A stretch of DNA of 64,000 bases, taken from positions 96,001 to 160,000 of the IMG/VR virus record IMGVR_UViG_3300031994_000006. One strand, given 5' to 3'. A model generated the notes under the pieces. The model made no database searches. It was not told the origin of the DNA and saw nothing but the letters and a program-made list of their open reading frames with translations. The position numbers and the translations under genes are program-made. This document shows, piece after piece, positions 3,932-64,000 of this stretch; positions within the stretch are counted from its first letter, which is position 1; the number at the start of each line of letters is the position of its first letter. Source of the DNA: a virus (lineage: Duplodnaviria; Caudoviricetes).

Positions 3932-4477
3932 TCATCTCCCGACAGGGAACATCATGTTCCAGCACCTGTCAAGCACAGCCGTCAGTGTGCGGACGCCCTT
4001 CTCTGATCCGAGGTCGGCAGCGGACATCTTGATATACGATTCAGACTCATTCCGTCCGTCGCCGTCGAAGTAGAGCCAACCGCCCTTCTCCTCATCATCC
4101 CGTTCATAACAGAAGCCGAGCCTGACCGTGTCGTCGTCCATGCGGTCAATCTCCATGGCGACGGAACCTCCCAGTCTTGTATTCCTGTCGCGGCCGGTCA
4201 GGTAGATGTTCTCCTCCGACTCAAACCTGCCGTCTGTCTCCAGATCGGACCAGACCGCCTCGGGCAGGTAGAAGTCGTCCGCCTTGTACGGAATACTCTT
4301 GTCCGTATTGCGCTTCTTCAAGGCCCGCTTGACGCCGTTGCACCAGGAGTATACGGCGGCCTTCAGATCCATGGGGACGGATTCGACCGCGTCGGCGGCG
4401 GATTCCTTCCTGCGGGCCTTGTTGCCGGCCTTGAAGGCCTCCCGGATATCCGGGGCTATTTCATCGAGCCTTTTCAT
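3932..4477 (-). CDS. Hypothetical protein with shared N-terminal leader (candidate internal head protein)
   Basis: N-terminus RLDEI..IREAFKAGNKARRKESAADAV matches that of 6922..7623. Confidence 0.75.
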   Translation of the reverse strand: MKRLDEIAPDIREAFKAGNKARRKESAADAVESVPMDLKAAVYSWCNGVKRALKKRNTDKSIPYKADDFYLPEAVWSDLETDGRFESEENIYLTGRDRNTRLGGSVAMEIDRMDDDTVRLGFCYERDDEEKGGWLYFDGDGRNESESYIKMSAADLGSEKGVRTLTAVLDRCWNMMFPVGR

Positions 4478-7713: not shown

Positions 7714-10700
7714 ATGATAGAGAAATGGACCCGCAGGGACGCCTCGACGTTCGAGAAGCAGATCATAGGCGCGGCGACCGCCAACAACATCGTCGTCAAC
7801 AACCCCAGGATCGCGTCCGGGCCCGTCTCGCTCGACAGCGTGCTCGGCTCGTACAAGGAGAACATCGACCACCTGTACGGAATAGCCAAGTGGAACTCCC
7901 GCCACGGGGGCGGCGGAGGCGGCGGCACGGGCGGCGGCGAGACGGCCGAGACCAGGATCATGTTCACCGACTCGAACAACCTCGACATATCCGACTCCGC
8001 CAGGAGGACCGACGGATCCTCGTACTCATTCAACGTGACGATCGCCAACGCGGATCCCGACTACCAGTACCGCGTCACGGTCTACCGCCAGGACGATCCC
8101 TCGAAGGTCTACCGCACCGCGGTCCTGACCAGGGCGGTCCCGACCATCTCCATCACGGCCGACGACATCGTGTCCGGCAACAACGTCATCATCGCCTCGG
8201 CGCAGGTCATCAACGACGGCACCAGGCTGACGTCGCGCTCCCTCACGGTCCAGAGGGCCGGCGTGTCCGTATCGGCCGTGACCGTCAACTACACCTCGAG
8301 CTCCCTGGAGGACGGCTACACCGTCACCCCGGGCGCCGCGGTCTACAAGTCGAGGGACCAGATACCCTTCATCGTCAACATACTCATCAACCCGAGCATC
8401 TCCGGTAACCTGGACTACGAGATCGACCTGAGCTCGATACTCGGCCCGGCCCATGAGAACGCCAGGATAACCGTGACCGGCCTGAGGTCCACGGGACAGC
8501 AGATCACCGTGCCGCTCAACCTGTCGGACCAGCTCTACTCGAGGGTCATGGTCAACGGCAAGTCCTATGACGTCAAGGTGACCGCCAGGCTGCAGATCGA
8601 CGGAACGCTGGACTACATCTCGGCGCCCGTGTTCACGTTCAGGGTCTCCTGGGTGACCGCCGACGGCATCACGGTGCTCTACTCCAACCCCGAGTGGAAC
8701 GACCTCGAGACGGAGGCCTATTCGGACTCCTGGTTCGCCGACGGCAACAACATCAACATGAACGGCTATGTGTACGCGCAGCGCACGTACAGCTACATAT
8801 ACCCGATCTACTACGTCTACAGGCGCACGGCGGACGGCGGATGGGACCTCATCCAGAACACCGGCGTCATCAACTACGGCCCGGAGCATGACGACGGATG
8901 GACGTACGCCGGAGGCCAGATGACCAACCGCGACATCAACGCGTTCATCTCCGGTAACATCCAGCGCCGACAGAGGAACAACGGCGAGGGCGTCTCGTTC
9001 GACGTCAACCTGTCCTACAACTCGATGCAGGACGACTGGTTCATGCCGAAGGACGTGTTCGACCCGGGATACGGGCTCGAGGATCCGACTGACTTCGCGT
9101 CCATCCGCGTCGACGTCTACATATTCGCCGGCAACTCGGCCAACAGCATCACCACGATGCCGGCCGTCGACTCAGAGGGCAGGTTCATACCGAACATATC
9201 AGTCAAGGCCGCCGTCGAGTACGCGGCCGCCGCGGTCCCTGACTACGTCCACGGCCAGTGCTACAAGGACGTGATAGCCGGCAAGGCCGAGGGCATCATC
9301 CGCTCCGAGGAGCACCGCCGCTTCAACCTCGACCTGCTGTCGAACCTGACCGGCTCGTACACGCAGACAGAGTACCGCAATCCCCAGAGATTCGAGGCCA
9401 ATGGGCAGGATTATGAGTACGACCTCCCGTTCCGCTATGTCAGGTCCAACAACACTACGACCGGATTCGTCCGTGAGGATTCCAGGGGCGTCATGAAGTT
9501 CAGGGCGACCGGCGAGTTCTACGGCTACATGACCACCGACGACCTCGCCCCGTTCGTGCTTACCGCATCCGACGGCATATCGTCATGGACCAATCTGTTC
9601 GCAGGCGACGGTTCCGGCTTCACTATCGAGCTCATCTTCAACTCCGACTGGCACCCGAACAACAAGGGCACCGTGTTCTCCATGGGCACCTATAACGCCA
9701 ACGGGGAGCTCACGTCGGGTATCGAGGTCACGCTTGACAAGGTATCCGTCAAGCTCAGGCAGGACGATACCATCTCGCTCGAGGTCCCGCTCATCCAGAA
9801 CACGCTCACGCAGATCGACATCTGCGTCTCCAGGCGCCGTGTCACCATCGGCGGCCAGACCGAGGACTATATCATCGCGAACGTCTACAAGAACGGCATC
9901 AGCCACGCGCTCGGCGCCGCGGCCGTCCGCAGCCTGAACGACCTCATGCAGTTCAACGGCCTGTATTTCGGCGCGAAGAACGTGAACGGGACCATGACCA
10001 ACTTCACGGACGCCGACATGTACGGACTGAGGCTCTACGATCAGCCGCTGCTCGACTACGACGTGACCAGGAACTGGCTTATCACATACTCGTGCATGCA
10101 CAAGGTGAAGTCTGCTACCGGAAACTCATGGGAGTACGATCCGGACGTGGTCGCGTCGGTGCTCGAGAAGAACTACTTCAACGCCGACTGGGATACGCCC
10201 ATCTGGGACTTCGCGACCAAGAAGCCTGCATCCGGCGACGCCCTCCTCGAGGCCCTCACGACCGTCAAGCAGCGTCTGTCCGCCACCAGCAAGGAGTACT
10301 ACCGCGAGCTTCCCGTCCTGCTGATTACAACACAGGACCAGGGCGCCTATAACTACGTCAGCGCGATATACGACGAGAACGCCGCCGCGGTCAACAACGC
10401 ACGCAGCTACGACTCGCAGCCAGGCTCAGGCACAGGCCTCATCCCCGCGTCCATGCAGTACTGGGACGAGCTCGGAAACGACCCGATCAGCATCGCCTCG
10501 ATGTTCTTCAACGTACAGGGTACCTCCACACAGGGCTATCACTCCAAGAACTTCGAGATATACTTCGGCAGGTACCGTGAGACCGGCTCCGGCCATGCGT
10601 ACGATCCGGACCAGAACTACTCGGGCTCGCTCGGCACCGACCAGGCGTTCAATGACGGCGAGGTGCTCTTCACCCCGAAGTCGAAGAAGTGGCTCCCTGA

Positions 10701-62704: not shown

Positions 62705-63064
62705 ATGTCACGCACATTCAAGAAGAACATCCGCTGCTTCGTATGCTGCGGCAGCAATACGGAGTATTACAGGGCACGCCGCCGCAAGGTACGCCGCCGC
62801 TGTAATCATCAGCTTCGTACCCTTATGGCGAACCGCCTCCCCGAGGACGTCGACGACCTCTGGACCGATCCCTGCCTGCCGAAGGAGGATCAGTGGGACG
62901 AGCCTACTGACGGCCACTGGCATGAGAACCTGGATACTCTTAAGATGAATATCCGCATCTACGGACCCAAGGGCCTCTACTATGCCGACATGAAGCAGTT
63001 CAAGTACTACCTCAAGCCCCGTGTAAGCAGGTTTAAGGAAAAGATTTGCATTTTTTTGCATTAA
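62705..63064 (+). CDS. Basic Arg-rich hypothetical protein heading the tRNA region
   Basis: MSRTFKK...RARRRKVRRR. Confidence 0.7.
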   Translation: MSRTFKKNIRCFVCCGSNTEYYRARRRKVRRRCNHQLRTLMANRLPEDVDDLWTDPCLPKEDQWDEPTDGHWHENLDTLKMNIRIYGPKGLYYADMKQFKYYLKPRVSRFKEKICIFLH

Positions 63065-63121
63065 AACGGATTTTTTGGGAAAGTCCGTGAATATATAAAA
63101 TGAATTCAATCTGACAAAGGT

Positions 63122-63235
63122 ATGATTTTCGCAATAACAAATATACGTCCGGTGAACGTCTACGGTAATGATGACCGCAGGCGCGAAGGTACGTATGCAG
63201 AGGCCGGAAGGCCCGAGGGTTATACGGAAATATAA
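63122..63235 (+). CDS. Putative 37-aa leader peptide (attenuator)
   Basis: MIFAITNIRPVNVYGNDDRRREGTYAEAGRPEGYTEI, TAA TGA; immediately followed by the antiterminator strand. Confidence 0.5.
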   Translation: MIFAITNIRPVNVYGNDDRRREGTYAEAGRPEGYTEI

Positions 63236-63310
63236 TGATCCTGTCAGAAATTCAAGTTCAGATGAGTGCTGATTAGAGATTTCGGAATTATTGAATGATA
63301 TGAACGGATG

Positions 63311-63344
63311 ACAGGATTACCGGAGACGGGAATCCTGTTTTTTT
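63311..63344 (+). terminator. Intrinsic terminator upstream of the tRNA cluster, probably conditional
   Basis: ACAGGATT-A-CCG-GAGA-CGG-G-AATCCTGT followed by a T-run; the 5' arm can instead pair with 63236-63246. Confidence 0.75.
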
Positions 63345-63356
63345 ATGCCTGACGAT

Positions 63357-63385
63357 GTGACCGGCCGTAAACCGGAGCGTTTTAT
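63357..63385 (+). promoter_or_regulatory. ECF-like promoter GTGACC-N15-CGTTTTAT
   Basis: Matches the recurrent motif; lies between the terminator and boxA. Confidence 0.55.
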
Positions 63386-63451
63386 AGATACAAGGCGACT
63401 GCGGCCGCCTGGCAAGAAGGGCCTCAAGGGGTCCGGGCCGAAAACCGCGGA

Positions 63452-63467
63452 GTTCTTTGACATATTG
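63452..63467 (+). promoter_or_regulatory. rrn-type boxA antitermination element
   Basis: GTTCTTTGACATATTG fits the boxA consensus GYTCTTTRA(C/A)A. Confidence 0.65.
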
Positions 63468-63509
63468 ATACATGATATAGCAAGGGTGCGGATTCGTCCG
63501 CACCTGTCT

Positions 63510-63584
63510 GGGGGATTAGCTCAGCCTGGTTAGAGCGCCTGCATGGCATGCAGGAGGTCACGGGTCCGAATCCCGTATCCTCCA
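63510..63584 (+). tRNA. tRNA-Ala(GGC), no encoded CCA
   Basis: Acceptor GGGGGAT/ATCCTCC with G3:U70, D-arm GCTC/GAGC, anticodon arm CCTGC-ATGGCAT-GCAGG, T-arm ACGGG-TCCGAAT-CCCGT. Confidence 0.92.
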
Positions 63585-63597
63585 CACTATTTTAATT

Positions 63598-63691
63598 GCC
63601 GAGATAACGGCGTTGGTCTGTAAAACCAATCTGCTTTAACAAATTGTCGTAGTGGACTCGCAGTAAGCAGGTTCGAATCCTGCTCTCGGCA
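63598..63691 (+). tRNA. Atypical D-armless tRNA-Tyr(GTA)-like RNA
   Basis: Perfect acceptor stem GCCGAGA/TCTCGGC + A, anticodon arm TTGGT-CTGTAAA-ACCAA, T-arm GCAGG-TTCGAAT-CCTGC; only 8 nt where the D-arm should be; 37-nt variable region. Confidence 0.7.
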
Positions 63692-63703
63692 CATTTATCT
63701 TAA

Positions 63704-63942
63704 CAGAGCCTCCGTAAGCCGAGGAGAAAGGGCGTTGCAGAGCGGTCACCGGGACCTGTCATGAGTTCCGCCCGCCGATGACGCAGCCCGAATGCGGTGA
63801 AGTCCGATATACCGCATACCGTTGGCCGGCTGGGAATCGAAGGTGACGGCACGGAAGGGCGGACCTCCTGCCTGCAGGCACTGAGTTAGGGACACAGATT
63901 CCGGGATGTCGGGAACACGGTCAAGGTAACGGACAGGCTCTG
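63704..63942 (+). ncRNA. Candidate structured ncRNA of unknown family (~240 nt)
   Basis: Six nested helices found by eye; no ORF in the track; directly downstream of the tRNAs. Confidence 0.55.
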
Positions 63943-64000
63943 AACCATAACAGTATGACTGCTCTAATCCGGCGGACGCGCCGGTGGTAATGAGGCGCCC

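Follow-up and report, generated by a model that had tools for sequence, protein, structure and literature searches.

The gene described here occupies 94 bases (63598–63691, plus strand) near the end of the window, by which we mean the whole stretch of 64,000 nucleotides analysed, comprising bases 96001–160000 of a 207,794-bp linear IMG/VR record that is estimated to be 76% complete. We refer to it as the rewired tRNA-Tyr gene; it comes second in an array that extends over 19 kb on a single strand and holds 41 tRNAs called by ARAGORN and a tmRNA. The array's first gene, a tRNA-Ala(GGC) at 63510–63585 on the plus strand, is recognized by ARAGORN and by Rfam (62.9 bits) and lies 12 nt upstream, and the preceding operon, which includes a gene for a 5'-3' exonuclease, is closed by a terminator-like hairpin with seven T at about 63311–63346. 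A sigma-70 promoter scan of 63000–64000 returned nothing convincing on the plus strand. Just 5' of the first tRNA, GUUCUUUGACAUAUUGAUACAUGAUAUAGCAAGG (63452–63500) matches the 5' part of the DUF2693 RNA model at 22.3 bits, far below the gathering threshold, and may be an array promoter or leader motif of Bacteroidota phages. On its 3' side, the rewired gene is separated from the next tRNA (Gly) by a G+C-rich spacer of 462 nt, running from window positions 63692–64000 on to L041:753, in which we found no Rfam match and whose longest open reading frame (93 aa, minus strand) has no Pfam match.

The 41 ARAGORN tRNAs of the contig cover 19 amino acids, with Tyr alone absent, so that the rewired gene is the sole Tyr candidate on this 76%-complete contig, although a canonical tRNA-Tyr may lie in the rest of the genome. 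A search of the same contig for a phage tyrosyl-tRNA synthetase (TyrRS; PF00579) found none, and the host enzyme would therefore have to accept the altered variable arm described below.

Other parts of the array and contig, outside the window, hold further unusual RNAs. Two modules resembling YrlA (contig 168262–168325 and 168405–168468; L041:8862–8925 and 9005–9068) score 29.1 and 27.4 bits against a gathering threshold of 69; their elements come in the order T arm, closed acceptor-like hairpin, D arm, as circularly permuted tRNA-like units, and a weak 141-nt tRNA match bridges the two. A search of the contig, at 76% completeness, found no TROVE/Ro60 gene (PF05731), whereas crAss001 has one (Gp96). 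The phage tmRNA inside the array (contig 168978–169424; L041:9578–10024) matches RF00023 over its full length at 72.6 bits. A tRNA-Sec-like RNA at contig 164244–164332 (L041:4844–4932) scores 32.2 bits with RF01852 (gathering 47) and 30 bits with RF00005; its acceptor stem and variable arm are both long, its anticodon loop is CUACGAA (anticodon ACG), and it may be an allo-tRNA-like Arg tRNA. ARAGORN also reports two tRNAs (contig 161835–161909 and 163251–163326) whose anticodon loops are abnormal, with lengths of 6 nt ('gg') and 8 nt ('tcat'), the latter possibly a quadruplet decoder. Finally, a 190-aa open reading frame within the array (contig 163571–164143; L041:4171–4743) has an RNase T/DEDD exonuclease domain (PF00929, E 1e-15), and its product may trim tRNA 3' ends.

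An initial annotation of the gene, made without database searches, had listed a perfect acceptor stem, a canonical Tyr anticodon loop, a perfect T arm and an A discriminator, together with an 8-nt connector and an oversized variable region of 37 nt, and every element on that list can be located by direct reading of 63598–63691. From the 5' end, and on the plus strand throughout, the acceptor strand GCCGAGA (63598–63604) pairs perfectly with UCUCGGC (63684–63690) and is followed by the connector UAACGGCG (63605–63612), whose 8 nt are all that separates the acceptor and anticodon stems. Within the connector we distinguish UAA (63605–63607), which homology to canonical copies in loci L157 and L175 suggests is the equivalent of U8, A9 and A21; CGGC (63608–63611), equivalent to nucleotides 22–25 of the D helix; and a single G (63612), equivalent to G26. 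The anticodon arm UUGGU-CUGUAAA-ACCAA (63613–63629) presents the anticodon GUA at 63620–63622. The variable region that follows reads U-CUGC-UUUAACAAAUU-GUCG-UA-GUGG-ACUC-GCAG-UAA and comprises the equivalent of U44 (63630), the partner of G26; the 5' strand of the variable-arm stem, CUGC (63631–63634), paired with GCAG (63660–63663); an A-rich linker, UUUAACAAAUU (63635–63645), within the variable loop; GUCG (63646–63649), complementary to the connector strand and equivalent to nucleotides 10–13; UA-GUGG-ACUC (63650–63659), which holds the D-loop equivalent (A14, N15, Y, G18G19) and the return to the variable stem; and a UAA junction (63664–63666) just 5' of the T stem. The T arm, GCAGG-UUCGAAU-CCUGC (63667–63683), and the discriminator A73 (63691) complete the gene, which does not encode CCA.

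Standard models recognize this arrangement in part. The match to Rfam RF00005 spans the whole of 63598–63691 with a modest score of 39.6 bits (gathering 29), the E value being 7e-5 for the window; the alignment leaves out the D arm, where 5 nt stand against 15 model positions, and accommodates an insertion of 34 nt in the variable region. ARAGORN makes no tRNA call there, and RF02553 (YrlA) gives no match. The gene has the 7-bp acceptor stem with discriminator, the 5-bp anticodon stem with a 7-nt loop (U33, R37) and the 5-bp T stem with a UUCRANY loop of the RF00005 cloverleaf, but lacks its local D hairpin, since only 8 nt lie between the stems and the D helix is long-range. It likewise has GUA, A73 and G1-C72 of class II tRNA-Tyr, as well as the long paired variable arm, here with the loop engaged in the D helix. 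Folded alone, the RNA of 63598–63691 has a z-score of −2.7.

Direct searches with the window copy were empty, both for exact 22-nt matches in viral contigs and by blastn against 50,697 GenBank phages, because this copy is too divergent; other family members, used as queries, matched crAss001-like phages. Relatives were recruited in pattern searches, the first joining the D-loop-like motif to the T loop (two homologues), the second joining the connector to the anticodon loop (about 30 true members amid chance matches) and the third leaving the connector and its presumed partner free (further members). The resulting set holds 42 distinct copies from viral contigs, one contig of a metagenome-assembled genome (MAG) and the cultured phage crAss001. 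A scan of metagenomes with the connector, the partner strand and the anticodon all free gave at least 120 loci and at least 94 distinct sequences, and of the 94 listed, 92 are true members. The covarying homologues that the initial annotation had proposed to look for thus exist in number, with 42 viral and at least 92 metagenomic distinct sequences, or more than 130 with the rewired layout in total, an agreement far greater than chance would give. A scan of 185,579 prokaryotic species, each represented by one genome, yielded three true matches, all on MAG contigs; two of these contigs carry identical tRNA arrays, and the third, on which no tRNA was called, is a fragment from a contig end. The class is essentially viral. 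Nearly all member loci have several neighbouring tRNA genes, with none at the very short L124 and L208; the sources range from short fragments to parent contigs of up to 640 kb. When the whole phage contig was scanned for the structure, with patterns adjusted to the variable region of the Tyr form, no further rewired tRNA came to light.

Across the family, the consensus is a connector UAA-NNNN-R and a variable region Y-CUGC-...AACAAAU.-NNNN-UA-NYGG-...-GCAG-UA, while the acceptor, anticodon and T stems vary freely and are always compensated. In an alignment of 38 sequences (A1), all seven acceptor pairs covary (98.5% paired), the anticodon stem has double changes at four of its five pairs, and the T stem (98.4% paired) has them at four pairs, with the equivalent of G53-C61 invariant. 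The loops are more constant: CUGUAAA is the anticodon loop in 40 of the 42 copies, the T loop is UUCRANY in all 42, and GUA is the anticodon of every true member (for the metagenomic set, among the matches listed), the anticodon-free scans of viral and metagenome contigs having returned GUA alone among the matches listed. The UAA at the start of the connector and A73 are each present in 42/42 viral sequences and in 90/94 metagenomic sequences among the matches listed, and G1-C72 in 35/42 copies. Within the variable region, the linker, whose AACAAAU core is conserved, measures 11 nt in 33/42 copies (range 7–11), UA precedes NYGG in 42/42, the first G of the GG motif is invariant in A1 and the second at least 90% conserved, and the junction before the T stem begins with UA in 41/42, its third base being A or G. 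As a separate observation, at least seven distinct metagenomic copies (L230, L243, L250, L273, L278, L301 and L330) with different acceptor stems have C33, giving the loop CCGUAAA, where U33 is otherwise near-universal; the recurrence of this change calls to mind escape from nucleases that attack the anticodon.

The two conserved tetranucleotide slots, one in the connector and one in the variable loop, are complementary to each other. The pair CGGC/GUCG is found in the window and in most members, and CGGC/GCCG and CGUC/GGCG occur in both viral and metagenomic copies; other relatives have CACU/GGUG and CCGA/UCGG, or, with metagenomic examples included, CAAC/GUUG, CGGA/UUCG and CAUC/GGUG. The nearest copy, in the phage of L186, has CGGA/UCCG, crAss001 has CAUC/GAUG, and the metagenomic set adds CGGU/AUCG, CGGG/CUCG, CGGG/CCCG, CACC/GGUG, CAAG/CUUG, CCGU/ACGG and CGAG/CUCG, so that at least 16 complementary combinations of connector and partner are known across relatives. 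Among the matches listed, 90 of the 92 metagenomic true members are fully complementary in this D helix, and the two that are not both have a 9-nt connector; connectors other than CGGC fit their own partner in 37 of 39 cases, against 17% with the partners of other sequences; and the outermost pair (equivalent to 25:10) occurs in all four Watson–Crick types (C-G 68, G-C 10, A-U 8, U-A 6). On A1, 99.5% of D-helix cells are paired, against 21–67% in slid registers, and double-change cells number 10 against 0.8. RNAalifold, given the alignment as its sole input, predicts the same long-range helix. A fifth pair is available, in that the last A of 63605–63607 can pair with U63650 (A-U in 37/38), and the G26 equivalent covaries with the first nucleotide of the variable region (G:U 9/9, U:A 1/1, A:U 12, A:C 20).

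The variable stem CUGC/GCAG is 99.3% paired on A1, with the variants CCGC/GCGG, CCAC/GUGG, CCUU/AAGG and CUCC/GGAG, and because it crosses the long-range D helix the two together constitute an H-type pseudoknot, whose loops of 19, 11 and 10 nt are ample for helices of 4–5 bp. For the model of five helices as a whole, 98.3% of the cells of A1 are paired, against 73% in shuffled and 34–55% in slid controls, and the covariation score of 0.673 compares with 0.186 and was reached by none of 500 shuffles. No clear signal emerged for a covariation resembling the Levitt pair, in which the N15 equivalent would vary together with the bases that precede the T stem. From these sequence comparisons we hold with high confidence that the tRNA-Tyr family has this rewired, pseudoknotted structure, to which the window copy conforms with UAA-CGGC-G after the acceptor stem and GUCG-UA-GUGG in the variable loop. 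We conclude that the feature is genuine and conserved, a tRNA-Tyr variant of new topology.

These counts also bear on the description of the RNA as D-armless, with which the initial annotation began. According to that description, the tRNA would truly lack a D arm and would have a self-contained variable arm in which CUGC/GCAG is topped by a second hairpin, GUC-GUAGUG-GAC; both small helices can indeed be drawn in the window copy, and the minimum-free-energy fold of the single sequence contains the GUC/GAC hairpin. Across the family, however, no more than 74% of GUC/GAC cells are paired, and 18/37 sequences cannot form the middle pair, because GUCG pairs with the connector instead. The connector, with its UAA-NNNN-R pattern, is far too conserved for the plain spacer it had been taken to be and carries, after UAA, the other strand of the D stem. 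We therefore reject the inner hairpin on the family pair counts and regard a tRNA that is D-armless in this sense as very unlikely. What stands of the description is the absence of a local D hairpin, the D helix being rebuilt by long-range CGGC/GUCG pairing; and the companion proposal, of a topologically rearranged tRNA whose D-loop-like element (TAGTGG) comes from the variable arm, is borne out in its core, UAGUGG being the D-loop equivalent.

Relatives of the phage were also sought through the neighbouring 5'-3' exonuclease gene, which led to distant phages only (29–41% identity). The phages found in this way (L022, L008 and L015) have an ordinary class II tRNA-Tyr, which in some cases has the same anticodon arm as the rewired gene and an acceptor that likewise begins with GCCG, which points to descent of the rewired gene from a normal tRNA-Tyr. 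Both halves of the D arm can be recognized in the rewired form: the canonical copy of L175 reads U8-A-GCG-AA-GUGG-UUAAA-CGC-G26, so that its GCG-AA-GUGG...UUAAA-CGC may be set against GYCG-UA-GUGG and UAA-CGGC of the rewired copies, and the canonical copy in L157 reads ...GUGGUUAA-CGGC-A. An ordinary tRNA-Tyr is also present at about 10 of 45 loci, often adjacent to the rewired copy (L092, L101, L177, L175, L185, L181 and L216). In L216 the two forms share their acceptor stem (CGGAAGG) and T arm, which suggests a recent duplication or gene conversion between them.

Such ordinary relatives, with their similar acceptor starts and anticodon arms, together with the rejection of the window copy by gene finders, could be taken to mean that the gene is a decaying pseudogene or an assembly artefact that lost its D arm and gained an insertion, and a local deletion or misassembly was what the initial annotation had feared should relatives carry a normal D arm. 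Distant relatives do carry one, but that objection does not apply, because the rewired copies make up a large and conserved family of their own: in more than 130 distinct sequences, which come from a cultured phage as well as from independent assemblies, every stem is compensated, with 52 different acceptor stems among the 94 metagenome sequences listed. The early view that the gene is not decayed thus holds, and on family size and covariation we reject pseudogene and misassembly as extremely improbable.

As a whole, we consider it probable that the gene is the phage's tRNA-Tyr(GUA) in a conserved non-cloverleaf layout, which would have arisen by the transfer of a block equivalent to nucleotides 10–20 (the 5' strand of the D stem and A14...G18G19) out of its usual place, where it separates A9 from A21, to the variable-arm loop. 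The 5' half of the chain would then run from the acceptor through U8, A9 and A21 to CGGC (22–25), G26, the anticodon arm and U44, and the 3' half from CUGC through the 11-nt linker to GUCG (10–13), U, A14, G, U, G18, G19 and ACUC, and on through GCAG, UAA and the T arm to the acceptor and A73. In canonical tRNA, the D stem is capped by a base triple of U8, A14 and A21, and for this reason joining 8/9 directly to 21 should be sterically easy; in class II tRNAs, moreover, the region around position 20 of the D loop abuts the base of the variable arm. Pairing of CGGC with GUCG across the anticodon arm would rebuild a D helix able to stack on the anticodon stem, with the linker probably leading the chain to the base of that helix, possibly with contacts in its groove, and the GG of the transposed block could reach the T loop, a contact we propose from canonical tRNA structure. 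To judge from topology and loop lengths, the pseudoknot would in this way reproduce the L shape.

A different route to an ordinary tRNA would be a precursor that is cut and re-joined into a cloverleaf, by splicing or as in permuted genes. Archaea and a red alga are known to have tRNA genes that are permuted or split, and the same phage carries permuted tRNA-like modules. The termini of the rewired tRNA are already canonical, however, and restoring the normal order would take two cuts and two ligations with a swap of segments, for which we know of no enzyme, while direct pairing accounts for all of the covariation without any processing. We reject this route, which we hold to be highly improbable, on the grounds of the canonical termini and of the lack, to our knowledge, of a mechanism for such a swap.

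Turning from structure to function, the nearest copy and the cultured phage both resemble the window in what their tRNA sets lack. The phage of L186 has 25 ordinary tRNAs covering 19 amino acids, with Tyr alone absent. The rewired copy of Bacteroides phage crAss001 lies at about 4141–4235 of MH675552.1 (L218:3497–3591), in a 170-nt annotation gap of the tRNA array between tRNA-Lys and tRNA-Phe, and none of the 25 tRNAs annotated in that GenBank record is Tyr; 30 related Kehishuvirus and crAss-like records also carry an unannotated rewired tRNA-Tyr. The GUA anticodon in its CUGUAAA loop, A73, G1-C72, the T loop, GG and the acceptor are elements that RNase P, EF-Tu and TyrRS require, as do CCA addition and decoding. 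Under our preferred explanation, RNase P and 3' processing would excise the RNA and CCA would be added; host TyrRS would charge it, given that GUA, A73, G1-C72 and the variable stem are kept; and it would decode UAY codons. We judge this function the most likely because these elements are kept and because the gene is the only Tyr candidate here, in L186 and in the annotation of crAss001, and to that extent the sequences incline us to see a working tRNA-Tyr in translation.

At loci with both forms, decoding would not depend on the rewired copy, which suggests that this copy brings an additional benefit and may play a role of its own. [quoted passage not shown] With tRNA-Tyr a documented nuclease target and an extra phage tRNA-Tyr able to neutralize the defence (PMC13096335, PMC11555353), and with the rewired gene often directly beside an ordinary tRNA-Tyr as if the two had non-redundant roles, the RNA might be a decoy or sponge that soaks up a tRNA-Tyr-specific nuclease, or another protein that binds tRNA-Tyr, and is not used by the ribosome. 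Yet it is the only Tyr gene here, in L186 and in the crAss001 annotation, within sets that otherwise cover 18–19 amino acids; the elements for charging and decoding (acceptor, A73, GUA with U33 in most copies, A37, T loop and GG) are conserved; and one would expect bait for a variable-loop nuclease to retain an ordinary variable loop, not to rebuild it. We thus consider a decoy unlikely. For the working tRNA that we prefer, a plausible conjecture is that the layout was selected because it withstands defence nucleases whose target is the variable loop of an ordinary tRNA-Tyr, the loop of the rewired form being tied into the D helix and elbow. The full proposition, of a natural and active non-cloverleaf tRNA that is charged by host TyrRS and was selected for hiding or reshaping the loop such nucleases cut, we put forward as a tentative idea of doubtful standing.

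Comparison with known systems places the rewired tRNA apart from each of them. It resembles the class II tRNA-Tyr(GUA) of E. coli (tyrT), of T5/T6 and of the canonical copies in L175, L216 and L022 in its acceptor, A73, CUGUAAA loop, paired variable stem, canonical T arm and, in most copies, G1-C72, but differs in having no D hairpin and in carrying the 10–20 block after the anticodon arm, in the variable loop. D-armless mitochondrial tRNAs, such as metazoan mt-tRNA-Ser(AGY), likewise lack a D hairpin and are missed or poorly scored by gene finders, but they have lost the D helix and elbow contacts and need adapted mitochondrial factors (PMC7609411, PMC4013460), whereas the rewired tRNA keeps a D helix and GG supplied from elsewhere, and does so in a phage of bacteria; its connector covaries and is not the unpaired connector of the mitochondrial type. 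Permuted and split tRNA genes, as in Cyanidioschyzon merolae and some archaea, and YrlA (RF02553) share with it a non-standard order of modules, but permuted genes are re-joined to give a normal cloverleaf, which the rewired tRNA, with its normal ends, does not need, and YrlA has neither the anticodon arm nor the free acceptor end that the rewired tRNA possesses. A 2024 paper (PMC11551756) states that all known bacterial tRNAs are cloverleaves and describes a tRNA of non-canonical fold evolved in E. coli, which raises the same question of a non-cloverleaf in bacterial translation; that tRNA is man-made, whereas the phage class is natural and widespread. A review of non-canonical tRNAs makes no mention of phage or pseudoknotted forms, full-text literature searches returned no published description of the rewired tRNA-Tyr, and the class is apparently unpublished.

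For annotation, the ARAGORN miss and the gap in crAss001 mean that phage tRNA sets have been reported, wrongly, as being without Tyr; for engineering, the layout is a new scaffold for the design of orthogonal tRNAs. The cultured pair of Bacteroides intestinalis and crAss001 makes our reading directly testable. If it is true, the rewired tRNA-Tyr would be the first natural non-cloverleaf exception in the bacterial translation system, and the L shape of tRNA would be reachable through a different topology of the chain. For the conflict between phages and their hosts, it provides a concrete hypothesis in which nucleases directed at the variable loop are set against the tRNA-Tyr of the phage.
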